Position numbers and translations under genes: made by a program. DNA of 64,000 bases, taken from assembly GCA_963816535.1 (NCBI GenBank), contig CAWFKW010000006.1, positions 324,334-388,333 on the forward strand, written 5' to 3'. Position 1 is the stretch's first letter. Each line of letters opens with the position of its first letter. Origin of the DNA: an uncultured Ignavibacteria bacterium. GTDB lineage: Bacteria; Bacteroidota; Ignavibacteria; Tepidaquicellales; OLB5. A model generated the notes under the pieces. That model saw nothing but the letters and a program-made list of their open reading frames with translations. It was not told the origin of the DNA and ran no database searches. Below are positions 6,022-38,489 of the stretch, piece by piece.

Positions 6022-8215
6022 TTATCATGCTCCTTAATAATTTTCTTAATTCTCCAATATTCAGAAGATTAAACCGGGCATGCGAAGAGAGCGCTCCCAT
6101 TTTTACGGTGTAAGCGCTATCAGGCAGAGCCTTGAACATATCTTCGTCTGTCCAGTCATCGCCGGCGGCGAAAATAAAATCATATTTAGCTTCATCAGTC
6201 AGCGTTTTGATAATGGCGCCTTTGTTTACGCCGTTATTTCTTATTTCGATAATTTTATTTCCCTGCATTACCTGCACATCCATATTAGCCGTAAGTTGAA
6301 CAAGGTCGTCCATTATTTCTTTTGCTTTCACTGAGCTCTGCTCAGGGTCCGATTTCCTGTAATGCCAAACGAGGGCAAATTCTTTTTCCTCAACGAAAGA
6401 GCCGGGAAGCAGGTCGGCAAAATTTTCAAGCAAAGGAAATATTAATCTTTTCCAATCGGCGTTCAAAACGGTCTGCTGTTTCCATTCATGCCCTTTGTCT
6501 TTCAGCCATGCCCCATGCTCCGCGGCAAGCGTAATATAAAACCCGCCAAACCAATCTTCCATCGTGCTTCTATCCCTTCCGCTGATCATAACTAATCTTG
6601 TATTTTTACAAGAACATAGTTCGCCGATCAATTTCTGCAGCTCATGGCCAGGCGCGGCCTGCTCCGGGTGAACTTCGAAAGGCGCTAATGTGCCGTCGTA
6701 ATCCAAAAATAATATTTTGTTCTTTGCTGTTCTAAACGAGCTAACAATTTCCTTTTTATGTTCTGAATCAAGTATCTTAGCGCCCCATTGTTTTTGGTTT
6801 TTCTTTACATCACCCAGCGAAGCGATGAAAAGTTCGGCCCACCTGTTGACATTGTATCTCTTAATTCTTGAGCGCATCACAATGTTTCTTCTCTTCTGTT
6901 CCTCGGCGGGCATTTCTAAAGCCTCCTTAATTGCAGAGGCAATTTCATTTGTATTGTTCGGGTTTATTATCAGAGCTTCCCCGAGTTCCTTTGACGCGCC
7001 TGCCATTTCGCTCAGTATTAATACTCCCGAAAGATCTGTTTTACAGGCCAAATACTCTTTTGAGATCAGGTTCATACCGTCTCTTAGCGGTGTAATAAGC
7101 GCGGCGTCGCTCGCTTTATACAATCCCGACAAGGCGTTCTGGTTTATGAACCTGTACTGGTATATGATAGGCGTCCAGCTAATATTGCCGTATTTTCCGT
7201 TTATGTAACCTACAAGCTCGTTTATTTCCCTTTTCATCAGGCTGTATTTTTCAACTCCGATCCTTGAAGGCACAACTATCATAAGCAGGTTGACCTTGTT
7301 GTGCCACCCGGGATTAGATTTAAGAAACTGCTTGAATCCTTTCAGCCTGTTTAAGATGCCTTTGGTGTAATCAAGCCTGTCAATCGAGAGAAGTATCTTA
7401 CAGTTTTCAAATTTTTCGTTGATGGTTCTTATCTCGTTTTCAGCTTCGGCGCTTGATGACGACCTGACAAAACTATCGTAGTCAATACCCATAGGGAACG
7501 TTTCGGCGTGTACGAGCCGTTCGGGATGAAAAATCTGGCCCAAGTTGATCTCGTAGCCGAGCAATCTCTGTACGCAGCTGAAGAAATATTTTGTGTAGTC
7601 ATAAGTATGGAATCCCACGAGGTCAGCGCCTAAAATTCCTTCAAGTATCCCTCGCCTCCAGTCTTTTGGCAGCATTCTGAATATTTCAAAGGACGGGAAC
7701 GGTATGTGAAGGAAGAAACCTATTTTTGCATCGGGAATTTTATCCCTGATAAGCTTGGGAAGCAGCATGAGGTGATAATCGTGGATCCAGATAGTATCGC
7801 CCGGGGAAACAATTTTCAGGATCTCATCGCAGAAAGTCTGGTTTACTTTCTTATAGATTTCCCATGATTCCTCATCATAAACTGCATAAGAAGTAAAATA
7901 GTGGAACAGCGGCCATATAGTTTTGTTGCAGAAACCGAGGTAGAATTTATCCATCACTTTTTCCGGAACGAACACAGGCTTCAGGTTAAGCGACGAAGCT
8001 TCTGCCAGAAAGGCCTGTTTATTCGATTCAGAAAGCGCTCTTCCGGGCCAGCCAATCCATTTGTAATCGGAATTCTTATCCTTTGCGCCTTTGATTGAAG
8101 AAAGGTAGGCGCTTACTCCTGAAACCAATCCTCCAGAGCTTTCCCTCAAAGAAATTCCTCCCTCATCCTCAATAATCGTAACAGGAAGCCTGTTTGAAAC
8201 AATCAATAAGCTCAT
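6014..8215 (-). CDS. otsA: Bifunctional trehalose-6-phosphate synthase/phosphatase (GT20 OtsA fused to HAD OtsB)
   Basis: 733 aa. The N-terminal part is SNRLPV...GGLVSG...WIHDYHLMLLP...GFFLHIPFP...LRDGMNL (GT20). The C-terminal part is LFLDYDGTL...GDDWTDEDMF (HAD phosphatase). Confidence 0.9.
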   Translation of the reverse strand: MSLLIVSNRLPVTIIEDEGGISLRESSGGLVSGVSAYLSSIKGAKDKNSDYKWIGWPGRALSESNKQAFLAEASSLNLKPVFVPEKVMDKFYLGFCNKTIWPLFHYFTSYAVYDEESWEIYKKVNQTFCDEILKIVSPGDTIWIHDYHLMLLPKLIRDKIPDAKIGFFLHIPFPSFEIFRMLPKDWRRGILEGILGADLVGFHTYDYTKYFFSCVQRLLGYEINLGQIFHPERLVHAETFPMGIDYDSFVRSSSSAEAENEIRTINEKFENCKILLSIDRLDYTKGILNRLKGFKQFLKSNPGWHNKVNLLMIVVPSRIGVEKYSLMKREINELVGYINGKYGNISWTPIIYQYRFINQNALSGLYKASDAALITPLRDGMNLISKEYLACKTDLSGVLILSEMAGASKELGEALIINPNNTNEIASAIKEALEMPAEEQKRRNIVMRSRIKRYNVNRWAELFIASLGDVKKNQKQWGAKILDSEHKKEIVSSFRTAKNKILFLDYDGTLAPFEVHPEQAAPGHELQKLIGELCSCKNTRLVMISGRDRSTMEDWFGGFYITLAAEHGAWLKDKGHEWKQQTVLNADWKRLIFPLLENFADLLPGSFVEEKEFALVWHYRKSDPEQSSVKAKEIMDDLVQLTANMDVQVMQGNKIIEIRNNGVNKGAIIKTLTDEAKYDFIFAAGDDWTDEDMFKALPDSAYTVKMGALSSHARFNLLNIGELRKLLRSMINV

Positions 8216-24126: not shown

Positions 24127-24279
24127 AGGTCATGCTCAAAATCAGCAGTTTACAATTTTATTTTCGTATATGTATGAAAAAGAGAAGCTTAGATATTAAG
24201 CAGCAGTTTATAAGAAGTTTAGCGGTGTGATTAGGTCTTTTTATTTTTGCTTGATCCAGGAAGGTCGTGTTTTCCGGAG

Positions 24280-24369
24280 CGGAGAGGGAGGGATTCGAAC
24301 CCTCGATAGCCCTTAACAGACTATGTCGGTTTAGCAAACCGGTGGTTTCAGCCACTCACCCACCTCTCC
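24280..24369 (-). tRNA. tRNA-Ser (anticodon GCU)
   Basis: The reverse complement folds by hand. Acceptor GGAGAGG/CCTCTCC. 3-bp D-stem with a long D-loop. Anticodon stem CCGGT/ACCGA with loop TTGCTAA (GCT). Long variable arm. T-arm GAGGG-TTCGAAT-CCCTC. Discriminator G. No encoded CCA. Confidence 0.9.
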
Positions 24370-24370
24370 G
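24327..24370. repeat. attL core: 44-bp direct repeat (tRNA-Ser nt 1-43 plus 1 nt)
   Basis: cggtttagcaaaccggtggtttcagccactcacccacctctccg is identical to 32908-32951. Confidence 0.9.
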
Positions 24371-24534: not shown

Positions 24535-25575
24535 ATGTTTCTCTCAAAACAACACAAAGGGACTTACTACCTGTTCTACAATGATGAAATTACAGGCAAA
24601 AGGAAAAAAATCTCAACCAAAACAAAAAAGAAACCGGAAGCATATAATTTTCTAAATTCATTCAAAGCAGGTTTAACGCCTAAGAAAAACCCTGTAATCT
24701 ATTTGGAAGGTCTAAAAGATGAAGTGCTTAAATACACACAAACTAACCTGTCCCCCGCTACACACTGCCTTTATATAACTGCTTTTAAAAACCTGTTAAG
24801 TTTCTTAGGTAATAAGCCTATTAAGTTAATTACTACAAAGGAACTGGATAACTATAAAAACAAGCGGGCTAATGAGATAAGAAAAGCTACCGTCAATATT
24901 GAGCTATGCTGTATCAAAGCTATTTTCAATCTTGCTTTAAAATGGGACTTTATAAACAGTAACCCCGCTAAAGAAGTTAAGAAATTCAAAATTGAGGAAC
25001 GGGAAATATTAAGTTTCTCGGATACGGAGCTTAAAATATTGTTTGACGCTATTCCCGAAGGCAACATCAGGAATATTGTTCTTTTTGCCCTAAACACAGG
25101 TTGCAGGATTAACGAAATTCTAAACGTACAGATAAAGGATATTAACCTAAAAGAAAAAGTCCTTACCATAATGAATAAGGACGATTTTAGAACTAAGTCG
25201 GGCAGAATAAGACAGATACCGGTTTCGGACGCCTTAGAAACGCTGTTAAGGGGGTTATTAGGGCAGGAAACTAATGTATTTGAATTAAACGACCCTGAAA
25301 CATATTTGTTCGTTAATAGCAAGCGCTGTAAGTATGATAAAAATTTCATTTCAAAAAAGTTCAAGGAATATCTTCGCATGGCGGGTTTACCGGAAAAGTT
25401 TCATTTTCACTGCCTTAGGCATACATATATAACCAACCTTGTTAAAGCAGGGGCGAATATCAACTATATTAAACAGATAGCGGGGCACGCTGACCTGAAA
25501 ACAACGGAAAATTATATTCATATAGGAATTGAGGATTTGCGAAATGCAGTTAATAAAGTGAATGTAAATTATTAG
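24535..25575 (+). CDS. int: Tyrosine recombinase/integrase (full length, with N-terminal arm-binding-type domain)
   Basis: C-terminal catalytic pattern ..TGCRINEIL.. / FHFHCLRHTYITNL / GHADLKTTENYIH (R..HxxR..Y). N-terminal KGTYYLFYNDEITGKRKKISTKTKKKPEA resembles Bacteroidota integrase arm-binding domains. Confidence 0.9.
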   Translation: MFLSKQHKGTYYLFYNDEITGKRKKISTKTKKKPEAYNFLNSFKAGLTPKKNPVIYLEGLKDEVLKYTQTNLSPATHCLYITAFKNLLSFLGNKPIKLITTKELDNYKNKRANEIRKATVNIELCCIKAIFNLALKWDFINSNPAKEVKKFKIEEREILSFSDTELKILFDAIPEGNIRNIVLFALNTGCRINEILNVQIKDINLKEKVLTIMNKDDFRTKSGRIRQIPVSDALETLLRGLLGQETNVFELNDPETYLFVNSKRCKYDKNFISKKFKEYLRMAGLPEKFHFHCLRHTYITNLVKAGANINYIKQIAGHADLKTTENYIHIGIEDLRNAVNKVNVNY

Positions 25576-25640
25576 AAAATAACGTTATATTTTATAGAAT
25601 TTAATTCAAAGAATGGCGTAAAAACATAATAAAAATATAA

Positions 25641-25797
25641 TCAGCGTTTCTTATCTCATAGCTTAAACTCGCAAGTTTAAAATTTTACACGAAGATAAGG
25701 AGACGCTCACGCATTCCAGCGTGGGCTCTCTTATTCGTGTAAGGGTTTCTTGCGAGACCTAAGCTGCGGTAAGATGTAGTTTCACGCTGGTTTTTTT
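25641..25797 (+). other. 157-nt rod-like imperfect palindrome ending in a T7 run (candidate structured RNA, large terminator, or folded-DNA site)
   Basis: Hand-paired nested stems: 25642-47/25784-89, 25649-55/25768-74, 25660-65/25760-65, 25668-75/25749-56, 25685-25703/25727-42 (with bulges), and 25705-12/25719-26 closing a 6-nt loop. T7 follows at 25791-97. Confidence 0.5.
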
Positions 25798-26136
25798 ATT
25801 TAGCAGCAAACACAAAACAAAACACTGACTATGAAAGAGATGTCGATTAGAACGCATCGATAATATTTTCAAGTCAACTCTTGAATATTTAATTAATCAA
25901 ATGGGTAAATATAACGAACATAAATTTTTATCAAAGAGGTACATTTGGGATGCGCAAGAGGGAAATGTAATATATGAACAATTAGGTAATTTGGGATATT
26001 ATTGTATTAATATTTTCCTCACGTCAAGCTCAATAAATAACCAAGTAAAAGATTATCACTCAAAACATTAATAACAGTACATAAATTAATTAAATCTCAA
26101 ACCTATTCTTAATGCCTAAATTAACTGGAGGCTAAA

Positions 26137-26286
26137 ATGAAAAAAATGTTAATATTTTTATCTTTATTATTAGCGTTGCATATAATACAAATGCTGGAGC
26201 ATAAATTTTGTCACGTTGTGGCTATAGACAGAATGTTGTATAAGCCGTTTCCGCTATGTCCATACTTTTATGCCCATTTTACTTAA
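26137..26286 (+). CDS. Unlisted 49-aa small protein, copy A (hydrophobic N-terminus, Cys/His-rich C-terminus)
   Basis: MKKMLIFLSLLLALHIIQMLEHKFCHVVAIDRMLYKPFPLCPYFYAHFT. The paralogue at 27579 differs at 13 nt, of which 9 are synonymous. Confidence 0.6.
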   Translation: MKKMLIFLSLLLALHIIQMLEHKFCHVVAIDRMLYKPFPLCPYFYAHFT

Positions 26287-26356
26287 CAGTTAACGGCATT
26301 AGGTTGTTGTTTCACGCTGGTTTTTTTATTGACCTAAACACAAAACATTTACTTAG

Positions 26357-26740
26357 ATGAACAATACTGAAATAGAATTCTTTGAAGCAGAAGTCCAATC
26401 TCTCAGAGCCAATGGCTATACAATACATGTGAAAAACACTACGTCAGCAGTTCTCGTAAAGAAAGAAAAGATTAATTATTTAATAGCATTCGCTCTCGCC
26501 GCAATTGAAGCCTTATTTTTTGTAATGCTTTGCAGAACATCAGTTAACACAACGAACCTCATTATTCTATTCGGAATTACCTGTGTAGTGTACTATCTTG
26601 TGCGAAAGGAACACTATTTGTTTATTAAATTGAATTCTATTGGACAATTAGAGAAGAAAAAATACAAATCCGTGAAGCCCGGCGAATTGCTAAATCTCTT
26701 TGACTTGTTTCAACAAGATGCCTTCTCAAATGATTATTAA
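26357..26740 (+). CDS. Hypothetical small membrane protein (2 predicted TM helices)
   Basis: 127-aa ORF with hydrophobic segments YLIAFALAAIEALFFVML and LIILFGITCVVYYLV. Island cargo. Confidence 0.5.
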   Translation: MNNTEIEFFEAEVQSLRANGYTIHVKNTTSAVLVKKEKINYLIAFALAAIEALFFVMLCRTSVNTTNLIILFGITCVVYYLVRKEHYLFIKLNSIGQLEKKKYKSVKPGELLNLFDLFQQDAFSNDY

Positions 26741-26805
26741 CGGCTTTATTGAACCTTGAAAATGATAACACAGTTTTTGAACAATAAGCACTAATTCGCA
26801 ATTCT

Positions 26806-27519
26806 ATGAGTTTGAAATGTCCTAAATGCGGTCTGTTTAATCCCGACAATGCTCTTAGGTGCGATTGTGGTCATTCCTTTGTTAAAAAGCCTGAGACGAG
26901 CGTCCCGTCCGAAAACGAATTTGAATCTACAAATCGGCATGACTTTCTCAGAAAGCAAGTACTGAGCGGGAAAACAACTGCCGAAGCACTACAACTATGG
27001 AAGGAACGACAACTAGTACCCGTGTCAACTGAGAAGGTAAGAGAAGCAGAAGCGGGTAACGACCCAATAAAACCAGTGGAAGAAAAACCCGTTACCCAAG
27101 ATGATGCAACCGTCAATCAAAAAAGTACAAAAAAGATTGCTTTTGTTAAACGAAAAATTGTAATTTTTTCCTTAGTGATTGTTTCAATTGTTGTATTAGT
27201 CCTCATTGCTAAAGGCTATTTCTTTTCAACCGCAGAAGACTTCAATTCCACTTACATAATAAAAGTCTTCCCTTCAATTAAAGATGACCCTTATGATATT
27301 CAATATGAAATTAAAAGGAAAGATGGAACAATAATAATAAAGGATTTGAAAAGTCAAGAGGGTTATAATGATTACGAGGCTAATGGTAAAAAGCTGTCTG
27401 TAACAATCAGTCAAAGGTACAATGACCAAAACATAAAACTTGAAATATGGGAAAAGTTAAGTCTAAAGTTAAATGACGAATTGAAAGGAACGGGGAAACT
27501 AACGCTAAAGACTGAATGA
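26806..27519 (+). CDS. Zinc-ribbon / single-pass membrane protein of unknown function
   Basis: N-terminal CPKCG..(11)..CDCGH zinc ribbon, a charged linker, TM segment IVIFSLVIVSIVVLVLIA, then a ~90-aa C-terminal domain. Confidence 0.55.
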   Translation: MSLKCPKCGLFNPDNALRCDCGHSFVKKPETSVPSENEFESTNRHDFLRKQVLSGKTTAEALQLWKERQLVPVSTEKVREAEAGNDPIKPVEEKPVTQDDATVNQKSTKKIAFVKRKIVIFSLVIVSIVVLVLIAKGYFFSTAEDFNSTYIIKVFPSIKDDPYDIQYEIKRKDGTIIIKDLKSQEGYNDYEANGKKLSVTISQRYNDQNIKLEIWEKLSLKLNDELKGTGKLTLKTE

Positions 27520-27578
27520 TGATACCGCAAAACAAAACATTTTTGGCATATTTATAGCTAAATAAACTGGACGCTAAA

Positions 27579-27728
27579 ATGAAAAAAATGCTGATATTTT
27601 TATCTTTATTATTAGCTCTGCATATAATACACGTGCTGGAGCACAAATTTTGTCACGTTGTGGCTATAGATAAAATGTTATATAAGCCGTTGCCGCTATG
27701 TCCCTACTTTTATGCTCATTTTACTTAA
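27579..27728 (+). CDS. Unlisted 49-aa small protein, copy B
   Basis: MKKMLIFLSLLLALHIIHVLEHKFCHVVAIDKMLYKPLPLCPYFYAHFT. It lies in the second copy of the 175-bp repeat. Confidence 0.6.
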   Translation: MKKMLIFLSLLLALHIIHVLEHKFCHVVAIDKMLYKPLPLCPYFYAHFT

Positions 27729-28506
27729 CAGTGCTATGATACTCAAAACAAAACATATAAAAATGAAAGCATTATTACCCGTCTCAATATTATTCATTTC
27801 CTTACTTTCATTTATTTGCTCGACTAATACAGAAATAGAGCAGAACAAAAATATAAATGCGGTCAAAGGTATACGTTTATACTATGATACTTTACATCTG
27901 AATCCTATAAACAAAGAATTTTACTTCCCCACAAATTTATATACTCATGATTCAATTTATTTATCGGATAGGTCTGACACAATTACCTTTAAGAGTTATT
28001 TGAAACCCAATAATGACCATTGGCAACGAATGAATGAATGGTATTCCGAAGCGCTGAGGGCATTAAAAGAACCAAAAATATATAATTTGGATACAACGCT
28101 AGAAATTTATCGCTTTACTTGGCTAAGAACCTTTCATAAACCCGTAGCTATAAGAATTGAAAACAATAATAATAAATACAAACTGTTTTTGAAAATAAGT
28201 GACGGGGCAGGCGGGTATTCACCGGGTAAACTAATTGTGAATGAAAATAAAATTCTAACATATGATGAATGGAATATTTTTAAAGATATGCTAAGTAAAA
28301 TAAATTTTTGGCAACTCGTTCCAGAAACCCTCGAAAACATGGGTAATGATGGTGCAGGGTGGATTTTAGAAGGCAAAACAAAAGATAAGTATAATTTTAT
28401 GACAATATGGAATCCAAACGAAAAACATCATCAAGATTTTCGTGAGTGCTGTGAATATTTAATAAATTTAAGCAAACTCAAAATAAAGAAATCTGAATTA
28501 TATTAA
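27712..28506 (+). CDS. Hypothetical secreted protein (likely start ATG 27763)
   Basis: Starting at 27763 gives the signal peptide MKALLPVSILFISLLSFICSTN. The upstream 17 codons overlap the small ORF and the repeat. Confidence 0.5.
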   Translation: MLILLNSAMILKTKHIKMKALLPVSILFISLLSFICSTNTEIEQNKNINAVKGIRLYYDTLHLNPINKEFYFPTNLYTHDSIYLSDRSDTITFKSYLKPNNDHWQRMNEWYSEALRALKEPKIYNLDTTLEIYRFTWLRTFHKPVAIRIENNNNKYKLFLKISDGAGGYSPGKLIVNENKILTYDEWNIFKDMLSKINFWQLVPETLENMGNDGAGWILEGKTKDKYNFMTIWNPNEKHHQDFRECCEYLINLSKLKIKKSELY

Positions 28507-28530
28507 GGCAATAAAAACTTTGAGAGAAAA

Positions 28531-29376
28531 ATGAAAACAATATATTTATTTCCTGTTCTAATTATCTGTTTGTTGATAAATTTTAATACCAGCGTATCTC
28601 AAAATAATCAGGGCAGCGACAAAAAATCCGCTTCTGGTATAAAGTCTACAACAACATTCTTAATACTTTACGATAATGGTAAGCCTACGGGGGATTCCTT
28701 AATAAATTATTATATTGAATATGACAAAGAAGGAAATATATTGCAGGATTCCGATTATTATAAAGGGCATTTATTTGCAAAATATTTTTATAAGTACGGT
28801 AAAAATGGTTTTATAAAAGCCGAAACGTTTGAATATTATAACGAAAAAACGGGGCAAGTTAATGACGTCATAAAGACAAATTACAACAATGATGGGAAGA
28901 AGCTGGAAACAATCCATTACACTTTTATATTAGGGGATACTCTTTTAGATAGAAGTATTTATAAATATGACACAAAAAATGACTGTGAACTTAGCGTAAA
29001 CGTCACTGATAACGATTCAATTGTTAGCAAGACGTGTTTTAAATATGATAAAAATGGTAACGCTATTAAAGAAACCCATACAAACTCAAATGGTGTAGTA
29101 AATCTAACTTATAGCAGATTGTTTAATGACTCCGGTAATTTGATACAGGAAATATCGACTAACACAGATAAAGATTTTGAGTATAAAATTATTTGCAAAT
29201 ACAATGATTCTAATATAAAAACCGAGCAAATCAGATACGACGGCAACGGGAATTTACAAAGCAGTACAAAATTTACAAAATACGATTCAAATGGAAATCT
29301 TTTGGAAAGTATTACATACAATAGCAATGATAATATACTTTCAGTTTACCGCAACCAATTTCAATATTTTAAATAG
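28531..29376 (+). CDS. Secreted protein with YD-like repeats
   Basis: Signal peptide, then recurring (K)YD..GN(L/I)..(E/D).. units (YDKEGNILQDSDYY, KYDKNGNAIKETH, RYDGNGNLQSS, KYDSNGNLLESITY). Confidence 0.5.
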   Translation: MKTIYLFPVLIICLLINFNTSVSQNNQGSDKKSASGIKSTTTFLILYDNGKPTGDSLINYYIEYDKEGNILQDSDYYKGHLFAKYFYKYGKNGFIKAETFEYYNEKTGQVNDVIKTNYNNDGKKLETIHYTFILGDTLLDRSIYKYDTKNDCELSVNVTDNDSIVSKTCFKYDKNGNAIKETHTNSNGVVNLTYSRLFNDSGNLIQEISTNTDKDFEYKIICKYNDSNIKTEQIRYDGNGNLQSSTKFTKYDSNGNLLESITYNSNDNILSVYRNQFQYFK

Positions 29377-29407
29377 CAACAAACCATGAAATCAACATTA
29401 GTTATAA

Positions 29408-29431
29408 AGCGGATTAAATCCCGCTTTTTTT
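29408..29431 (+). terminator. Rho-independent terminator
   Basis: AGCGGAT-taa-ATCCCGCT (one bulged C) followed by TTTTTTT. Confidence 0.6.
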
Positions 29432-29459
29432 ATTTCTATACCCCTCTTAAATACTTATA

Positions 29460-29975
29460 TTGGTTAACGGGAAGGGAAAAATGAGTAAAAAAGACGCTAA
29501 AACCAGTACAGGTGAATTACCACAACGGTTATTTAAAATTGCCATGTCTTATATTGATTCCATGACAGACGAGGAGCGAAAGGAATTACTTATTAGAAAC
29601 TATGTTCCTAACGAAACTTATGAACAATGGCAACTTAAAATTAAAGAATCCGAAATACAGTACTTAAAACAGGATGTTGAATTAGAGAAAGAAAGTTCTC
29701 AACGGCTAAAAAATTTATACCTTGAATTGGCTTCAAAAAGCCCGTACGATTTAGCTTGTAAAATTGTACGAGTAAATCCCTCAAAGTATAATGACCTGTT
29801 AGTACCGCTATATGAATATATTGCCGAAAGGTTCACTTACAAAAAGAAAGACGGCAGTATAAACCGCTCTCAGGTCGCAAGACATATCAGAAAAATAGCA
29901 GGTAATACCAAAAAATCAGAACGAACAGTTCAAGCCGCATTAAGCCGTTACATTAACTCAAAACAGAAACGCTAA
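29460..29975 (+). CDS. Hypothetical protein, possible C-terminal HTH (likely start ATG 29481)
   Basis: ORF of 164-171 aa. The C-terminal INRSQVARHIRKIAGNTKKSERTVQAALSRYI looks HTH-like. No family recognised. Confidence 0.45.
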   Translation: MVNGKGKMSKKDAKTSTGELPQRLFKIAMSYIDSMTDEERKELLIRNYVPNETYEQWQLKIKESEIQYLKQDVELEKESSQRLKNLYLELASKSPYDLACKIVRVNPSKYNDLLVPLYEYIAERFTYKKKDGSINRSQVARHIRKIAGNTKKSERTVQAALSRYINSKQKR

Positions 29976-30168: not shown

Positions 30169-31083
30169 ATGCCTCGCTCCCAGATAAATAAATCTCCTGT
30201 AATATATCTTGAACAACTACAAGCGCAAGTGTTAAAATACACAGCGTCAAATCTTGCTCTAAGCACTCATCAACTGTACGTTACGGCTTTCAAAAACTTA
30301 ATTGGTTTCTTAGGCAATGTTCCCGTTACGCTAATTACTTCAAAGCACATTGACGATTTTAAGAGTTTTCGCTCTGAACAAATATCAAAATCAACTGTAA
30401 ATATTCAATTATGTTGTATAAAAGCAGCTTTTAACCTTGCTGTTAGATGGAATATGCTTGAAGTCAGTCCCGCCGAAAACGTTAAGAAGTTCCGAGTAGA
30501 GCAAACGGAAATACTGTCATTCCGAGATGATGAATTAAGGGTACTGCTTTCAGAAATTCCAGACGGCAACTTAAAAAATATTGTTTTATTTGCCATATAC
30601 ACTGGTTGTCGTATAAACGAAATCCTAAACATTCAGCATAAAGACATTGACCTCACAGAAAGAATTTTATTTATACGCAACAATGCAGAAACGGGATTCA
30701 AAACCAAAACAGGGCGCAACCGTCAAATCCCTATTTCAGATAGCTTGTACAACCCCTTACAACGCCTTTTAAAGCACGATAGCAACGTTTACTGCTTATC
30801 TGAACCTGACAGATACCTATTTACCAACCGCAAGGGCTTCAAATTCCAAAAAGACTATATAAGCAAGCAATTCAAAAATCATTTAAGAGCTTGTAACCTG
30901 CCAGAAAAATTTCATTTTCATTGCCTGCGTCACACATTCGTAACAAACCTTATCCGAAACGGGGTCAATATTTCTTTCGTTAAGGAGTTAGCGGGGCATT
31001 CTAATATTTCAACCACGATGAATTATATACACCTTGTTACGGATGACCTTCGAGACGCTGTAAACAAGATTAAGTTTGGTTAG
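30169..31083 (+). CDS. int: Tyrosine recombinase/integrase paralogue lacking the N-terminal arm-binding-type domain
   Basis: By eye roughly 55-60% identical to Int1 from Int1 residue ~46 onward (PVIYLEQL.., TGCRINEILN, FHFHCLRHTFVTNL, GHSNISTTMNYIH). An in-frame TGA at 30097-99 prevents any N-terminal extension. Confidence 0.85.
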   Translation: MPRSQINKSPVIYLEQLQAQVLKYTASNLALSTHQLYVTAFKNLIGFLGNVPVTLITSKHIDDFKSFRSEQISKSTVNIQLCCIKAAFNLAVRWNMLEVSPAENVKKFRVEQTEILSFRDDELRVLLSEIPDGNLKNIVLFAIYTGCRINEILNIQHKDIDLTERILFIRNNAETGFKTKTGRNRQIPISDSLYNPLQRLLKHDSNVYCLSEPDRYLFTNRKGFKFQKDYISKQFKNHLRACNLPEKFHFHCLRHTFVTNLIRNGVNISFVKELAGHSNISTTMNYIHLVTDDLRDAVNKIKFG

Positions 31084-31085
31084 GC

Positions 31086-32330
31086 TTGAATATGAAAGTT
31101 TACATCCCCTCCACTTTGCCAATAGCCCTGTTTCCTGAAAAGCATAAGGACAAGTATTTCTATTTCCTTCACAAAATTTATGAGGAAAGAGTATTTAATA
31201 AGGAATATGAATATAACTCTTACGTTAACCTGAATGCTTCAATTATGAGATATATTATAGGTCGAGGAAGCTTTGAACCTGTTAGAAGTGCCTTAATCGC
31301 TAAAGGTATTATTGAAACTGATAACTGGTATGTTGTAGGTAAGAAGTCCAAAGGTTACAGGTTAACTTTTCAATATAGCGGTGTTAAACATCAGCAGTTA
31401 GAGATAACGGATAGTAATATTATTAACAGGGTAAGCGTATTTAAGCAAAGGCAGGAATACAACATTCCGCTGGGAATAGAATATCAAAAACTCCATGAAT
31501 GGCTTAATTTATTTTCTATTGACTATGAAAAAGCTATCCAGTTCATTAATTCAAACTACGCCGCCGACACTCACAAATGGATATGTAATACCATTTCTGT
31601 AGATAAAATTAAGGAAAAGGACATCTTTTTTGTTGCCGATAGTTCAGCAGGACGGGTTCATACTAATATAACCAATCTTTCAAGAGAGTTGAGGCGGTTT
31701 CTGCTATTTGATAATAAGCCTCTTGTCAATATTGACCTTGCAAACTCCCAACCGTTTTTGTTTAATATCTTAATCAAAAAATATGTTGACGGCGGCAACG
31801 TTTCTTTTTCTAACAATCTTCCCAATTCTCAATCACATCTTCTACCTTATGATGGCTACTATGATGGAAAAGTTAATAATGACATTGATTTATATTTACA
31901 ACTAACAAGCGACGGCAAGTTTTATGAGTATTTAATGCAACAAATGAATTACAACGGCGATAGGAACATGTTTAAAAAAGAGTTTTTCGGTAAGGTTTTT
32001 TACTCTAAAAATAGCTCTAATTATGTTTTCAGGGAACGGAAAGAGTTTAAACGGCTATTCCCTACAGTTTCTAACATTATTGATTACCTCAAAAAGGATG
32101 ACTATAGGGCGCTGCCCGTCATGTTACAACGTGCAGAACGTAAGATTATCATTAATAAAATTGTCAGGAGAATTGTCATTGAGCGTCCCGAACTCCCTAT
32201 TAGCACTATTCATGATAGCATTCTGACAACCAAAGGGAATGAAAACTATGTTAGCGATGTAATAAGGGAGGAATTTTCTAAAGAAATTAATTTGATACCG
32301 TCCATTAAGACCGAAATATATGGTTCTTAA
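31086..32330 (+). CDS. Minimal family-A (PolA/T7-like, TV-Pol-like) polymerase-like protein
   Basis: Ordered motifs AGRVHTN, PLVNIDLANSQPFLFNIL (A), RNMFKKEFFGKVFY (B) and ISTIHDSILTT (C). It starts 3 nt (TTG) or 9 nt (ATG 31092) after the int2 stop. Confidence 0.55.
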   Translation: MNMKVYIPSTLPIALFPEKHKDKYFYFLHKIYEERVFNKEYEYNSYVNLNASIMRYIIGRGSFEPVRSALIAKGIIETDNWYVVGKKSKGYRLTFQYSGVKHQQLEITDSNIINRVSVFKQRQEYNIPLGIEYQKLHEWLNLFSIDYEKAIQFINSNYAADTHKWICNTISVDKIKEKDIFFVADSSAGRVHTNITNLSRELRRFLLFDNKPLVNIDLANSQPFLFNILIKKYVDGGNVSFSNNLPNSQSHLLPYDGYYDGKVNNDIDLYLQLTSDGKFYEYLMQQMNYNGDRNMFKKEFFGKVFYSKNSSNYVFRERKEFKRLFPTVSNIIDYLKKDDYRALPVMLQRAERKIIINKIVRRIVIERPELPISTIHDSILTTKGNENYVSDVIREEFSKEINLIPSIKTEIYGS

Positions 32331-32907
32331 AGGCACAGTGAATGACGTTAGCGGCGTTTGCCATCAAGCGCTGTTTTCACTTTTTAGGTAATATTATATT
32401 TTTTTTAACTTCGCTTTTTAGCGTAATTTATATTAAGAGGCTATTAAGGTACTCACAAGCCATTCCAAAATCGGAATAGTGCCGAAATATGATAATACGA
32501 TACTTAGAAATTTGAGAAATCTGACATATCGTTATAAGCTAAACAAAGTTAATATAATAAAGATATTGTTACTTAATGTTGTATAGGCGGAAACGTCATA
32601 GAGAAATTACTACCTTACAAAGTTAGAAATTTTAACCATAACAGCTATTGATTTTATTTTGCAGTTGAATTAATTTGCAGACGTTAAAACTTCAAACAGC
32701 TAAAATTGAAAACAGAAATTTTATTTACACATTCCCGTCAGGGTTACAAAAAGGGTTTAGCTGCCCCGAAGTTTTCCTTGACGGGATTTGTGTTTAAAAG
32801 GAACTCACTACAAAAGAAATTAATCATTTTTTAGGGCTTGAAGTAACTAAAGAAGTACCTACGTTTTCGATTTGTTTTGTTTCCCCTGCAAATTTGCCAC
32901 TTACCAA

Positions 32908-32951
32908 CGGTTTAGCAAACCGGTGGTTTCAGCCACTCACCCACCTCTCCG
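32908..32951. repeat. attR core: orphan 5' fragment of tRNA-Ser
   Basis: Identical 44 bp. The sequence on the side where the tRNA 3' half should be (..ttaccaa) is not tRNA-like. Confidence 0.9.
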
Positions 32952-33381
32952 TGATAAATTAGCTGAATTATTACCAAACATAATCATTTCTCAGGAATTT
33001 TCACAGACAAAAAAATAGACCACCGAGAGTTCAATTTACGATGAACATATTCTGGATCCAAATCTCCTGTATAGAAACCTCCTTACTCCGAAATCCTATT
33101 ATGCCTCTCCCAGGCAGTAGCTTGGGAGGGAGTAATGAGTTTAGCCGCTGTTTTCACAAATTACTGCCGCTGGTGGCGTTATAGCCAACAACTTTTAAAT
33201 ATAATGTATCCTTAGAAAAATATCTTTCATAAAAAACTCATATTACTGCCGTTGTTGGCGTTATCACCAGCAACTTTTAAGCCGGGAACTTCTTACGAAA
33301 TTCAGCATTGAGAATTAAATGGCAAAAAGCGAACTTAAGCTAAATATTTTCCTAATCTTGAATTCAAACCTCAACTAGTAT

Positions 33382-34167
33382 ATGAAAACTCAGAAAAATA
33401 TCTTTCATAAAAAACTCATTGGCAAGTGGGGTAAATTTACTATTTATCTGGTTGATGATGAAATAGTCCGCAACAAAGCCGAATATGCAGAAGAATTCAG
33501 CGACTACGGCGTGAACATTGGCAAGAGAGGACTGGCTACGCTGAATTTCAAATTCATACCGAAAGATGAAATATGGATAGCAAAATCCATCAAAGCGTCA
33601 GAAAGACATTTTATTATCGGTAACGCGCTATCTTACATAAAAAATATTGAAAACGGAGTAGAACCCGGCAAGGCATATGATAATGCCCTTAAACAGGAGC
33701 AGGACCGCCGCACAAATGAGGCAATAAATAAGCTTCATATAAAGACAAAGACGCTTTTTGATAATCCGCTTCATAAAAATGTGCCAAAGAAAGTTTATAA
33801 GAAGAAATATCTTGTAATAAAAGATAAGAAAGATATCGTAAGCGTATACTTAATCAATGCGCAGGTTGTGCGCGATTTGTACAAACCCGATTATGTTGAA
33901 GGCGGGCACGGTTATGTTTATGAATGGATACCTGAAAATGAAATATGGATTGATGTGAAAGTGAAGCAGGATGAAATACCGGTAATAATACTCCACGAAT
34001 ACCTGGAAAGGATATTGATGAAGTATAAGAAGTTTCCTTATGTAAGGGCGCATAACGCCGCGCTAAGAGTTGAGTTTGAGCACAGGGGAATTTTCAACAA
34101 GAAAGACGCCGCCGCGCTGAGCAGGAATGTTGTGCTGAATAAGCTCTTGCAGAATATCAAATACTAA
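33382..34167 (+). CDS. Hypothetical protein with internal two-fold repeat
   Basis: 261-aa ORF with repeated IP(K/E)(D/N)EIWI blocks. HEYLE is not a canonical HExxH motif. No family recognised. Confidence 0.5.
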   Translation: MKTQKNIFHKKLIGKWGKFTIYLVDDEIVRNKAEYAEEFSDYGVNIGKRGLATLNFKFIPKDEIWIAKSIKASERHFIIGNALSYIKNIENGVEPGKAYDNALKQEQDRRTNEAINKLHIKTKTLFDNPLHKNVPKKVYKKKYLVIKDKKDIVSVYLINAQVVRDLYKPDYVEGGHGYVYEWIPENEIWIDVKVKQDEIPVIILHEYLERILMKYKKFPYVRAHNAALRVEFEHRGIFNKKDAAALSRNVVLNKLLQNIKY

Positions 34168-34333: not shown

Positions 34334-35830
34334 ATGAAAAAGAGCCTTTTTCTCATTTGGGTTTTTCTGGCATCGTTCATAATTTATTCTCCTTCGGATC
34401 TGCACAGCCAGGAATCCGATCTGAATAAGATAATTAAATCAGGCCAGGACGCAGAGCAAACAGGCAATTATACCGAAGCCCTGTTTTATTATTCGGCAGC
34501 CATAGACGCCGACCCTGCATACGTGGATAGTTATGTGTACCGCGGCGGGTTGTACAAAAGAATGAAGAATTATCCCAAGGCCAAGCTAGACTTCCAGCAG
34601 GTGGTTAAAATAAACCCGCAGAATGAACAGGCGTATATGGACCTTGGATTGATCGACACTGAACTTAAGAGCTTCGCCGACGCGGTAAACGATTACAGCT
34701 CGGTTCTCTCTATCAACCCTAACAACGCCGATGCATATTATTTTAGGGGCAATAGTTATAATTCGCTTGGAAAGCTTAAAGAAGCGGCGGGCGATTATTC
34801 AAAAGCTGTTGAGCTTAACCCTTCAAATACCGATGCAAGCGCAAAGCTGGCGTCTGTTAACAACCAGCTTAATCAGAACGTGCAGATAACCTCAGCGGAT
34901 AACCAGAAATCAACAGATAACCAGAAATCAACAGATAACCAGAAATCAACGGATGAGAAAAACGAAAAGAGGAATGATGTAAGCGTTGAAAAGAAAACAG
35001 ACGTAACGACGGAAAACAAAACGGAAGATAACAGCCGGAAGAAACCCGATGTGACCGTAGACAATAAAACCGATGACAGCAAACAAGTTGCGGTAAATGA
35101 ACCTGAGAAAACAGGCGATTCTAAGAATGTACTTGTCAGAGAAAAACCCACTGAAGATAACAGCGTTTCAGATACCGACGGCGACAACCAGCAGCAGGAT
35201 ATTGCGGACAATACTCAGACGACAAACCCGGACAATACACAGGCCGATAACCAAAATACGAATCAAACAGAAAACACAAATAATACTTCTCCTGAAGTTA
35301 CTAACAATACTCAAACAGAAAATAATGTAAATACCGAAGAGAAAAAGGAAGAAGTAGCGCCCATAGTAGAGCCAAAGCCCGATATAGAGAATTTTATAAT
35401 GACAGGACTAGGGTACTATGAAAAGAAACAGTTCCAGAAAGCGCTTGATGAATATGACAAGGCGGTGCAGATAGACCCCGATTTTTACGAAGCCCATTAT
35501 CATAAAGGCAGAGCCTACACCGAGCTAAACGATTATGACGACGCTATTATGGAATATACCAGGACCATAGAGCTTGATCCTTCGCATGAAAAAGCTCACG
35601 TTAACCGCGGGTATATTTATAACGAACTGAAACAGTACGATAAGGCGATAGCCGATTATCAGAAAGCTGTGGAGATAAATCCAAAATCAGTTTTCGGATA
35701 TTACAACATGGGAATTACTTATTATAACATGAAAGATAAAGATGATGCTGCAAAAAGCTTTCAGCAGGCCGCGAGGCTGGGAGATACAGATTCACAGGAG
35801 TGGCTTCAGTCGAACGGTTACAGCTGGTAA
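34334..35830 (+). CDS. TPR-repeat protein with a long low-complexity central linker
   Basis: Signal peptide. TPR units are present at both ends (A..Y..A...DP....AY..RG..Y). The central region is D/N/Q/T/K-rich. Confidence 0.8.
   Translation: MKKSLFLIWVFLASFIIYSPSDLHSQESDLNKIIKSGQDAEQTGNYTEALFYYSAAIDADPAYVDSYVYRGGLYKRMKNYPKAKLDFQQVVKINPQNEQAYMDLGLIDTELKSFADAVNDYSSVLSINPNNADAYYFRGNSYNSLGKLKEAAGDYSKAVELNPSNTDASAKLASVNNQLNQNVQITSADNQKSTDNQKSTDNQKSTDEKNEKRNDVSVEKKTDVTTENKTEDNSRKKPDVTVDNKTDDSKQVAVNEPEKTGDSKNVLVREKPTEDNSVSDTDGDNQQQDIADNTQTTNPDNTQADNQNTNQTENTNNTSPEVTNNTQTENNVNTEEKKEEVAPIVEPKPDIENFIMTGLGYYEKKQFQKALDEYDKAVQIDPDFYEAHYHKGRAYTELNDYDDAIMEYTRTIELDPSHEKAHVNRGYIYNELKQYDKAIADYQKAVEINPKSVFGYYNMGITYYNMKDKDDAAKSFQQAARLGDTDSQEWLQSNGYSW
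34898..34951 (+). repeat. 3 x 18-bp in-frame tandem repeat (DNQKST)
   Basis: gataaccagaaatcaaca x3; the last base of the third unit is g. Confidence 0.9.
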
Positions 35831-35858: not shown

Positions 35859-35890
35859 GGGGCGAACTAAAGGTTCGCCCTTAATTTTTT
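35859..35890. terminator. REP-like hairpin acting as terminator between convergent genes
   Basis: GGGCGAAC-taaag-GTTCGCCC followed by ttaatttttt. It belongs to the GTAGGGGCG...CGCCC hairpin family. Confidence 0.65.
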
Positions 35891-36783
35891 CAGAACCTGT
35901 AATTCAGGATTCTATAGATTAGCTTTGCTGTTAGAAAATCCGGGAAAGCGTAGTCTTTTCGCGGGGCAAGTTCAACAACGTCAAACCCCACCAGGTTTCT
36001 TTTCTCACAAACCGATCTCAAAAGCCTCATTGTTTCATCCCAGTAAAATCCGTTAGGCTCCGGAGTGCCTGTTGAAGGCATAATAGACGGGTCAAAGTAA
36101 TCCACATCGAATGTAATATAGACATTCTGATCAAGCGAATTTACAATAATATCTATAAGCTGCCCGTCAAAACCTTCATGCCGCATTTGGTGTGCATAGA
36201 AGGTTGTAATTCCTTTATCTATAATAAAATCATGCTCTTCTTTTGACTGTGCGCGGATCCCCACCTGCGTTAATTTAGTCGTGAATTCAACTACCCGCTT
36301 AGCGAAACAAGCGTGCGAGTATTTTGTGCCTCCATATTCTTCGCGCAGATCCGAATGAGCGTCAAAATGCAGGATGGAGAGATTCTCATAAGAATCAAAG
36401 TGCGCCCTTATGGGCGCAGTTGATATGGTATGCTCGCCGCCAAGCGTAATTACAAACTTTCCGGCGTCTATCAGGGCTTTAACATTTTTGTAAATGAGGT
36501 CGAGAGCCTTTTTTCCGCTTAGCTTGCTGAAATCAAGCGCTTTTAACGCGGCAATACCTTCGGTAAAACATATTTCTTTTCCTGTTTCTTCATCGAAGAA
36601 TTCAACGTAGTGCGAAGCCTCAAGAATTGCGGCCGGCCCCTTGCCCGTTCCCTTGCCGTATGTAACCGTTTTTTCGTATGGACAAGGGAGAATAACTATT
36701 TTCGAGTTATCAAAATCAGAATACTGTTTTTCAATCGCCAGGAAGTTCTTTTTTAAAGGCAGAGTGCGGAATTTGTGCGGCAT
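35890..36783 (-). CDS. speB: Agmatinase / ureohydrolase-family enzyme
   Basis: Arginase-fold metal motifs GGEHTIS, HFDAHSDL, FDVDYFDPS and TGTPEPNG. Its ATG overlaps the dnaX TAA by 1 nt. Confidence 0.7.
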   Translation of the reverse strand: MPHKFRTLPLKKNFLAIEKQYSDFDNSKIVILPCPYEKTVTYGKGTGKGPAAILEASHYVEFFDEETGKEICFTEGIAALKALDFSKLSGKKALDLIYKNVKALIDAGKFVITLGGEHTISTAPIRAHFDSYENLSILHFDAHSDLREEYGGTKYSHACFAKRVVEFTTKLTQVGIRAQSKEEHDFIIDKGITTFYAHQMRHEGFDGQLIDIIVNSLDQNVYITFDVDYFDPSIMPSTGTPEPNGFYWDETMRLLRSVCEKRNLVGFDVVELAPRKDYAFPDFLTAKLIYRILNYRF

Positions 36784-38489
36784 TATCTTATTTCTTTTGC
36801 GTTAAACTCGTTTACAAGAATCGAGCGTATCTTATCGTAGGAGCTCTCAGAGTTTTCTTTGGCGGCAGATTTTTCATCGTTGTTTTCTGTGCGGGCGGGG
36901 ATAGTCTTTTCAACTGTGACATTGAGCGGGACTCCAAAATAGGCTGAGATCTTCTCGGCGATATAATCTTTGTACCCGCTCAGAAGTTCATAATTGCTCT
37001 CATCGATTCTGATGACGCAATTCCTTTTTCCGTCTGATTCAAAATATGAATCCTTTACAATGCTGTAAATCCACATCTTCTTCTCGGCTTTAATCCCGTC
37101 CTTAATTGAGGTCCAGTGGGAATCAAGATCGCCTAATACTGATGAAATATCCACAGCCTGGAACTGCGTTTGGACCGGCGTCGGCGTTTCTTTTAATGTT
37201 GCGGTTTCCGTGGCGGCCGCCGATTCGTTCTTCATATCATAATTTACTTTAACCGGGCTGCCTGCTTCTGATTTTACCGCGGTTTTGGTTTCGGTTGAAA
37301 CGCCTGAACGGCCTGAGTTTCTGCCTGTTTGACCCGCGCTTATTTCCTTTATTTCATCAAGTAATGTCGATATATCTTTCGTATCGGTAAACTTGATCAG
37401 CTCTATCAGGAGCGCTTCAATTAACGTTCTCTGGTTTGCCGAATATTTGAATGTATATTCAGTCTGCAGAATTAATTTAAGCGAGTTAATTGTTTCTATC
37501 TGCGTAAACTTACCGGCGAGCTGAAGATATTTTTCCTTCGTGGATTCCGATTCAAGTATTAATGCCGCTGAATTTGTGGATGCGGCTATCATCAGGTTGC
37601 GGTAATGCTCTGCCAGCCCGTCAAGAAAAGTCTGCATGTCGTATCCTTTGTTCATCAGTTCATCGAAGTAGTCAAGCAGTCCCTTTGCATCTCTCGCTTT
37701 AACAAGCCACGAGATGTTGAAATATACATCGGATTGCGCGATATTAAAAAACTCTTTCAGTTTATCGAACGTAATATTATTATCCGAGTATGCGGCGGAC
37801 ATATCGAACAATCCCTGCGCGTCGCGCATGGAGCCGTCGCCTTTTTTTGCGATGAAAAAAAGCGATTCGTCGTCTATCCTGATATTTTCTTTTTTCGCTA
37901 TTTCAATTGTGCGCGCTTTTATTTCGTCAATTGTAAGGCGCTTGAAATCAAATTTCTGGCACCTGCCAAGTATCGTCATAGGCACCTTTTCAGGGGATGT
38001 TGTGGCGAATATAAAAACAACATACGGAGGCGGCTCTTCCAGCGTTTTCAGCAGTGCGTTGAACGATGCGCCTGTAAGCATATGGACTTCATCAATAATG
38101 AATATCTTATATTTTGAGCGAACCGGCCCGTATTTTACTTTTTCTTTCAGCTCTCTTACATCTTCAATGTTCCTGTTCGAGGCGCCGTCGATCTCAAAAA
38201 CGTCGGGGTGGTTGCGGTTATCGTTCTGAATCTCTTTGCAGCTTTCGCAAACGCCGCACGGGTCGCCGTCAGGTTTGCGGTTCAGGCAGTTGAGCGATTT
38301 GGCCAGGATCCTCGCAACGGTAGTTTTGCCAACTCCGCGCGGTCCGCAGAACAGGTAAGCATGCGATACTCGTCCGCTTTTGACGGCGTTTTTCAGCGTC
38401 CTTGTGATAAATTCCTGAGACGTTACATCGTCGAACACCTGCGGCCGCCACTTGCGCGCCGTAACTCTGAATTCTAATTCTTCCGGCAT
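36783..38489 (-). CDS. dnaX: DNA polymerase III subunit gamma/tau
   Basis: ARKWRPQVFDDVTSQEFITRTLKNAV..HAYLFCGPRGVGKTT..CGVCESC..IIDEVHMLT..FNALLKTLEEPP. Confidence 0.95.
   Translation of the reverse strand: MPEELEFRVTARKWRPQVFDDVTSQEFITRTLKNAVKSGRVSHAYLFCGPRGVGKTTVARILAKSLNCLNRKPDGDPCGVCESCKEIQNDNRNHPDVFEIDGASNRNIEDVRELKEKVKYGPVRSKYKIFIIDEVHMLTGASFNALLKTLEEPPPYVVFIFATTSPEKVPMTILGRCQKFDFKRLTIDEIKARTIEIAKKENIRIDDESLFFIAKKGDGSMRDAQGLFDMSAAYSDNNITFDKLKEFFNIAQSDVYFNISWLVKARDAKGLLDYFDELMNKGYDMQTFLDGLAEHYRNLMIAASTNSAALILESESTKEKYLQLAGKFTQIETINSLKLILQTEYTFKYSANQRTLIEALLIELIKFTDTKDISTLLDEIKEISAGQTGRNSGRSGVSTETKTAVKSEAGSPVKVNYDMKNESAAATETATLKETPTPVQTQFQAVDISSVLGDLDSHWTSIKDGIKAEKKMWIYSIVKDSYFESDGKRNCVIRIDESNYELLSGYKDYIAEKISAYFGVPLNVTVEKTIPARTENNDEKSAAKENSESSYDKIRSILVNEFNAKEIR

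Follow-up and report, generated by a model that had tools for sequence, protein, structure and literature searches.

The window, by which we mean the whole 64-kb stretch of DNA analysed here, contains two copies of a 44-bp direct repeat that consists of the first 43 nt (5') of a tRNA-Ser(GCU) gene plus one base. The GC content between the two copies is 0.30-0.37, compared with 0.40-0.50 outside them. Together, the paired repeats and the internal drop in GC place the element under study, a rod-like hairpin directly downstream of an integrase gene, inside an integrated island of 8.6 kb. The repeat corresponds to the 5' half of the tRNA, unlike the usual 3' end, and the island therefore supplies the 5' half of the functional tRNA together with its upstream (promoter) region. 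The features of the left part of the island are as follows.

24279-24369, minus strand: tRNA-Ser(GCU), found by tRNA detection; its 5' half is the island direct repeat found by repeat search
24327-24370, unstranded: left copy of the perfect 44-bp direct repeat (att core; repeat family D3)
24535-25575, plus strand: int1, Xer-like tyrosine recombinase (Phage_integrase, 1.9e-31; profiles)
25586-25593, plus strand: TATATTTT box (TATATTTG in the related locus L002), a weak promoter candidate from which a rod or cargo transcript might start; no -33 element is visible
25641-25790, plus strand: rod-like hairpin, 53 pairs in six helices (RNAfold and homologues)
26357-26740, plus strand: first cargo ORF past a hairpin remnant, with its start codon 29 nt beyond the T-tract
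32908-32951, unstranded: right copy of the 44-bp direct repeat (family D3), the end of the island

The best solved relatives of Int1 are XerA, XerC and XerD. The rod begins 65 nt past the int1 stop codon and is followed by at least seven cargo ORFs, all co-directional with int1; those from 26357 to 29975 all lie on the plus strand. Annotation of this cargo with PADLOC and against PDB returned nothing, the single PHROGs match was to a family without an assigned function, and Pfam gave only sub-threshold MORN_2 and RHS/YD matches. Further downstream lies a second integrase gene, int2 (30169-31083), whose product is 57% identical to Int1. It is directly followed by a 414-aa ORF with a weak DUF6339 match and no PDB relative (30169-32330 for the pair), and the same layout of an integrase and an abutting gene is seen in locus L041 at 222-1979. 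The island may represent two elements in tandem.

Comparison with loci that encode relatives of Int1 indicates that the module moves. In locus L031, the chromosomal gene beside the tRNA is unrelated to its counterpart in the window, and the island module is therefore mobile. In locus L002, dnaX and an arginase gene adjoin the tRNA-int junction (2-2561), and the same two genes lie beyond the attR end in the window (35890-38489); the tRNA-Ser neighbourhood has been rearranged between these two related genomes. More distant Int1 relatives (L001 7147-10761, L032 5295-12860 and another locus) carry recognisable anti-phage cargo: ThiF with Prok-E2_E, Multi_ubiq and TCAD9; AbiGi with type I restriction-modification and ThsB_TIR; and type I restriction-modification with DUF4062. 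On this gene content, the Int1 integrase family appears to mark small tRNA-linked defence islands. Short repeats of the AGAGATAAGAGATAAAAGATAAGAGATAA type occur at 4990-5020 of L032, and also in L034 and L035, within a 430-nt non-coding gap past the integrase. Repeats are also present in the window outside the right end of the island. Two local duplications lie there, one within 33157-33280 (42 nt, 86% identity, 82 nt apart) and one within 33204-33419 (38 nt, 89%, 178 nt apart), the latter overlapping the start of the ORF at 33382-34167. The TPR-protein gene at 34334-35830 contains three overlapping 27-nt copies with 18-nt spacing at 34892-34954.

RNAfold folds positions 25641-25797 of the plus strand into a single unbranched rod of 53 nested pairs, in blocks of 7+7+7+8+11+5+8. 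This agrees with the earlier note, which had drawn about 50 nested pairs, arranged as six helices under an apical loop of 6 nt; the loop is AUUCCA, at 25713-25718. The predicted minimum free energy is -64.6 kcal/mol, against -35.6 +/- 3.9 kcal/mol for dinucleotide shuffles (z -7.5), and none of 200 shuffles matched it. On the 3' side, an asymmetric bulge of 9 nt, UGUAGUUUC, interrupts the duplex at 25775-25783. The 3' end reads ACGCUGG followed by U7 at 25791-25797, as had been described. The parts of the rod referred to below are as follows.

25659-25693, plus strand: 5' strands of middle helices 3-5, covarying with 25734-25766 (alignment pair counts)
25699-25731, plus strand: apex, consisting of helix 6 and loop AUUCCA, near-invariant in the three homologues, with 10 of 13 pairs showing no variation
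25734-25766, plus strand: 3' strands of middle helices 3-5 (alignment pair counts)
25775-25783, plus strand: conserved asymmetric 9-nt bulge, TGTAGTTTC, which is TGTTGTTTC in the L031 type (fold and homologue comparison)
25791-25797, plus strand: T7 (U7 in RNA) tract adjoining the closing helix CAGCGU/ACGCUG (sequence and homologues)

The minus strand of the same region folds less well (-58.0 kcal/mol with RNA parameters), and with DNA parameters the values are -33.9 kcal/mol for the plus strand and -30.6 kcal/mol for the minus strand. Folding of successively longer prefixes, as in co-transcriptional folding, reaches the rod directly. The earlier note had also proposed that an alternative pairing competes with the apical helix. 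Both octamers are present where it placed them, CCAGCGTG at 25716-25723 and CACGCTGG at 25783-25790, but the competition has no thermodynamic support: the forced pairing reaches only -50.4 kcal/mol, compared with -64.6 kcal/mol for the rod, and has an equilibrium probability of about 0. A switch based on this pairing was rejected on energetic grounds, at a cost of 14 kcal/mol.

Close relatives of Int1 are few, as judged from a search of 5.8 billion proteins. The DNA around relatives of 47-91% identity was examined, and among these loci only L002 and L031 carry a rod. The L002 integrase is 75% identical at the amino acid level, with the rod at 6276-6439; the tRNA-int module of L031 is 91% identical at the nucleotide level, with the rod at 1931-2092. 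Both rods beat their shuffles, with z values of -7.6 and -6.7, respectively. A covariance model built from the window and L002 rods recovered the L031 rod at 114 bits and gave a weak match to a fragment at 26165-26330; it found no further copy in the 64-kb window or in 38 other loci (related or scanned). The rod is therefore rare, amounting to three loci and one fragment.

The three rods were then compared pair by pair. Standard pairs occupy 96.2% of the pair cells, and 13 of the 53 pairs have changed on both sides with pairing kept, counts that come from three sequences in an alignment fitted to the structure by the covariance model and hence biased towards the fold. Controls in which the 3' partners were slid by 1-3 columns yielded 0-1 double-change pairs and 35-52% pairing, and none of 500 column shuffles attained the observed pairing and covariation values. 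An independent MAFFT/RNAalifold analysis, in which the L031 3' arm is misaligned, gave 7 compensatory pairs. All 13 covarying pairs fall within helices 3, 4 and 5. Sequence hardly varies at the base, which comprises helices 1-2 and the bulge, or at the apex, formed by helix 6 and the loop. The alignment contains 17 G.U cells and 1 A.C cell, and the plus strand is more stable than the minus strand in each of the three loci (-61/-54, -58/-52 and -55/-42 kcal/mol). The G.U excess and the greater stability of the plus strand indicate that it is the int1-sense strand that folds, either as RNA or as plus-strand DNA.

Covariation or conservation of the helices in related elements, whose absence the earlier note had named as a refutation, is thus present. 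The compensatory changes and the strand-specific fold support the view that the rod works as a structured nucleic acid. It is a real element, strand-specific and under selection for its structure, outside the described RNA families; its fold, compensatory conservation, folding strand, U-tract and position are all matters of direct observation. A search of the window and seven related loci against Rfam yielded only tRNA at the gathering score and nothing relevant at E up to 10. In viral contigs, 0 matches were obtained with a 24-mer of the apex, a 17-mer of the tail or a degenerate version of the apex; the apex 20-mer had two chance matches in metagenome contigs, both inside GC-rich coding sequence; and the tail 19-mer had 20 chance matches in 185,579 genomes (one per species), none with a hairpin. 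These exact-pattern collections lack the window's own genome, and absence from them carries little weight. The rod had no blastn match among phages and plasmids, and no Int1 relatives were found in viral contigs.

Other roles for the arms of the rod were considered and rejected. An ORF running through the rod is suggested by a gene call in L031 that begins at an ATG in the 3' arm, but this ATG is not conserved (the window reads ATG TAG). A promoter in the 3' arm (TTG ... TAGTTTCA) would have a 24-nt spacer and an imperfect -7 box, and the box is missing from the L031 type. Pairing of the 5' arm with int1 codons 113-118 (16 of 17 nt) is not conserved in L002.

Part of the rod is found again downstream. 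The 22-mer GTTTCACGCTGGTTTTTTTATT occurs exactly twice in the 64 kb, at 25779-25800 and 26309-26330, with 0 occurrences expected by chance, and AAACACAAAAC comes after both copies. The downstream features are as follows.

26109-26290, plus strand: repeat R, copy 1 (repeat family D1), with a 49-aa ORF, abutting the remnant
26290-26330, plus strand: leftover 3' arm (about 41 nt, with T7 and ATT) of another hairpin, of the L031 type, lacking a 5' partner

The earlier note had interpreted this recurrence as re-use of the rod's own 3' arm. The recurrence stands, but the re-use does not: positions 26290-26330 are 93% identical to L031 2052-2092, closer than to the window's own rod. The fragment is what remains of a second, divergent rod that was truncated by an illegitimate junction. 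It is joined directly onto the end of the 200-nt repeat R, whose copies at 26109-26290, 27528-27732 and L031 2564-2766 are 90-93% identical. A microhomology deletion at TTAAC was considered as the source of the fragment and rejected, since neither copy of TTAAC has been lost; the junction is therefore simply illegitimate. The conserved 49-aa ORF of repeat R reads MKK(M/I)L(I/V)FLSLLLALHII(Q/H)(M/V)LEHKFCHVVAID(R/K)MLYKP(F/L)PLCPYFYAHFT; the repeat stops sharply just past its stop codon, and a different gene follows each copy.

Sequence identity also shifts abruptly at the rod itself. Between the window and L031, identity is 90-100% in int1 and about 90% in the upstream spacer, and 62-67% in the rod; between the window and L002, it is about 73% in int1 and 53% in the spacer, and 75-92% in the rod. 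All four copies (window, L002, L031 and fragment) share the end ...CACGCTGGTTTTT(TT)ATT and then run into four unrelated cargo sequences. These shifts, together with a shared end before unrelated sequence, place breakpoints at both edges of the rod. Such mosaic breakpoints hint at a role at the DNA level. They also indicate that the rod is an independent module, swapped between islands separately from integrase and cargo, which would be unusual for a mere terminator.

The reading we favour, tentatively and at just short of an even chance, is that the rod is a cis-acting RNA between integrase and cargo, which works as a terminator or attenuator of extended length and perhaps also as a site of dsRNA processing. 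Among the roles put forward in the earlier note, a terminator or gate between int1 and cargo fits best, because the U-tract is conserved, related islands lacking the rod carry a short terminator, and the cargo starts right downstream; a folded single-stranded DNA site and an sRNA stay on the list as less probable roles and are weighed below. The U-tract is kept as T5-T7 in all four copies, namely in the window, L002, L031 and the fragment (26321-26327). Relatives that lack the rod (L003, L006, L007 and L008) have a short GGGGCA...TGCCCC hairpin and a T run of five or more after the integrase stop codon; a short terminator at the equivalent site points to positional equivalence with the rod. 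The cargo start codon lies 15 nt past the U-tract in L031, 29 nt past it at the second copy in the window and 50 nt past it in L002. Distances of 15-50 nt leave no room for a promoter, and the cargo must therefore be transcribed through the rod. With the rod placed right before the cargo starts, some transcription must pass. The same rod-less relatives also have conserved G-rich blocks, e.g. ccacccggggg.aggggtcttgaaggggtgggggtaggt.tggaaagtgaccaggaggtttga, in a long run of non-coding sequence, at about 1740-1840 in L003, about 1340-1380 and 1650-1720 in L007, about 1480-1520 in L008 and about 1560-1590 in L006. These blocks were unmatched in Rfam at the gathering score and may form a further structured element.

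Termination, read-through, cleavage and factor binding at the rod, as we infer them, would proceed as follows. As the polymerase leaves int1, the GC-rich apical hairpin would form first and the arms would zip up afterwards. The last helix, CAGCGU/ACGCUG, would then close beside the U-tract, and most transcripts would terminate there. The rod would thus act as a gate, or attenuator, that sets the amount of transcription into the cargo. Its duplex body of about 53 bp probably doubles as a determinant of processing or stability, either as an RNase III-type dsRNA site, like lambda sib or the T7 intercistronic sites, or as a docking site for a factor that recognises the apex and bulge, both of which are invariant. 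This added role of the long duplex, apex and bulge is proposed because termination needs no 53 pairs. Ordinary short terminators are present inside the same island at 29406-29427 and 32350-32375, and termination alone therefore leaves both the 53 pairs and the invariant apex and bulge unexplained. If the gate reading is correct, a small integrative island would here separate its mobility gene from its payload by a structurally constrained RNA gate of unusual complexity, and structured RNAs would gain a new motif with clean covariation.

A different account treats the rod as a recombination element at the DNA level, either a single-stranded or cruciform site for cargo exchange next to a Xer-like recombinase, possibly integron-like and akin to the unexplained 'motif 3' of the recombinase' of Bacteroidales rAID-1 arrays, or a fragile palindrome that provokes illegitimate recombination. 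We consider this unlikely, but retain it as an account of some weight because of the mosaic edges, the orphan fragment, the Xer-like neighbour and the parallel with rAID-1 arrays. Homology between islands breaks at both rod edges, four different cargo sequences follow the common end, an internal junction in the cargo holds a piece of the 3' arm of a second rod, and the architecture resembles that published for rAID-1 arrays (10.1101/471110). Plus-strand DNA folding that tolerates G.T pairs would moreover yield equal covariation and an equal strand signal. Yet a conventional 44-bp att core for Int1 is already present in tRNA-Ser, and the conserved T-tract has no role in a recombination-site model. 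The attC boxes R''/R' (RYYYAAC / GTTRRRY) are missing at the rod ends, Int1 scores 71.6 bits against a 265-bit cutoff in the integron-integrase model, and the rod folds on the sense strand, in contrast to integrons, where the bottom strand is used. One full rod and one fragment serve at least seven cargo ORFs, so that there is no site per cassette, and the left junction of the fragment falls within helix 3, giving no recurrent crossover point. A more specific version is a long shot: a platform for capturing cargo, distinct from integrons, would recombine at the folded rod, with a Bacteroidota Xer-like integrase swapping or acquiring modules via a strand-specific hairpin just past its own gene. 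Under that reading, the mosaic edges and the orphan 3'-arm fragment would be footprints of such capture events. If the DNA-level reading were true, it would mean a second, integron-independent use of folded DNA for cargo shuffling, and would bear on the assembly of recombinase-associated immunity or defence arrays in Bacteroidota. Interest in the rod would rise sharply if the recombination-site reading or the rAID link were confirmed.

The rod could instead be the body of an independent sRNA of about 200 nt, transcribed from a promoter within the int1-rod spacer, ended by a terminator of its own and acting in trans through the apical loop and bulge; we judge this decidedly improbable. The TATATTTT box resembles the Bacteroidota -7 promoter element, TAnnTTTG, and is one of few blocks conserved across the spacer, which is otherwise 53% identical between the window and L002; the box might drive a leader or sRNA transcript. 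The comparison nevertheless involves effectively two independent spacer sequences, and a -33 element is not visible. The invariant unpaired AUUCCA and UGUAGUUUC resemble recognition surfaces, and a terminator is present at the 3' end of the rod. However, the rod matches no Rfam family and was never found apart from the integrase stop codon, and its sole long complement, in int1 at 24872-24888, is not conserved in L002. We give very little credence to a single-strand initiation site or origin, i.e. a DNA hairpin that primes the complementary strand, or a single-stranded DNA promoter, after single-stranded entry. The rod is a strand-specific long imperfect palindrome in a mobile island (the 91%-identical tRNA-int module of L031 lies in an unrelated chromosomal neighbourhood), and the hexamers CAGCGT/TAGCGT at its 5' base and apex presumably resemble the CS-6 motif (TAGCGT) of ssoA origins. 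These hexamers, however, sit in stems, outside the loop; no relaxase, Rep or conjugation genes were recognised in the island; stability with DNA parameters is near equal between the strands (-33.9 versus -30.6 kcal/mol); and the model explains neither the T-tract nor the position directly past int. A selfish or neutral palindrome of MITE or REP type, inserted without serving the island, is likewise a highly improbable explanation of the rod. The size and shape of the rod are typical of MITE/ERIC-type imperfect palindromes, and a truncated copy lies 530 bp away, but the 13 compensatory pairs and the 17:1 ratio of G.U to A.C indicate selection on the fold of one strand. No target-site duplication is visible flanking the rod, no further copies occur in the 64-kb window or the 38 loci, and the position relative to int is identical in three islands.

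Intrinsic terminators are among the known systems closest to the rod, with which they share a GC-rich closing helix, CAGCGU/ACGCUG, followed by U7 at the 3' end of a gene; the rod also occupies the site of the short terminators in related islands. It differs in size, as the earlier note had rightly emphasised: terminators have stems of about 5-14 bp and loops of 3-8 nt, whereas the rod has 53 pairs over about 150 nt. The invariant apex and bulge flanking a covarying middle are a further difference. A consensus terminator scan detects only the apical sub-hairpin of the rod, which lacks a proper T-tail. The long imperfect RNA hairpins found past int or between cistrons, lambda sib/tI and the T7 intercistronic RNase III sites, resemble the rod in form. 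The lambda sib hairpin overlaps a terminator and controls the fate of int mRNA, and the rod similarly lies downstream of int1 and overlaps a putative terminator. In lambda, however, attP lies between int and sib, and integration uncouples the two; here int1 lies downstream of the att core (24327-24370), and int1 and the rod remain together whether or not the island is integrated.

Integron attC sites resemble the rod in being imperfect palindromes conserved in shape, rather than in sequence, on one strand, and in the setting: the rod adjoins a Xer-family recombinase, at the border between an integrase module and variable co-directional cargo. In contrast to attC and attI sites, it has no R/L boxes, and its ends (..AATCAGCGTTTC.. 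and ..GTTTCACGCTGGTTTTT..) match neither box. It is not repeated per cassette, it is longer than a typical attC, and it is the sense strand that folds. The low score of Int1 in the NCBIfam integron-integrase model (71.6 bits, cutoff 265) derives from residues 263-330, the only part that matches.

A further parallel, in architecture, is with the rAID-1 arrays of gut Bacteroidales. As described, these arrays have a 5' XerD-like recombinase with a conserved motif immediately 3' of its stop codon, and short, co-directional, low-GC genes, and are called 'reminiscent of integrons' (10.1101/471110). The published criteria include a recombinase at least 44% identical to BF9343_RS08045, at least two co-directional downstream genes with GC <= 41%, and cargo consisting of orphan immunity genes (10.1101/471110). 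The host of the window is apparently not a gut Bacteroidales, its island is bounded by a tRNA-Ser repeat, and its cargo has only weak immunity-like matches (MORN_2, RHS/YD). On the other side, Int1 is XerD-like by profile, and the cargo ORFs lie on the plus strand at a GC of 0.30-0.37, like the co-directional low-GC genes of the arrays. A repeated intergenic sequence is common to both systems (repeat R in the window island), and the rod, directly past the recombinase stop codon in three loci, can be likened to the rAID motif by its position. The biogenesis of rAID arrays is stated to be unknown (PMC12247911), and if the cargo-capture reading were true, the rod would offer a first way into the mechanism by which rAID and similar recombinase-associated arrays are assembled.
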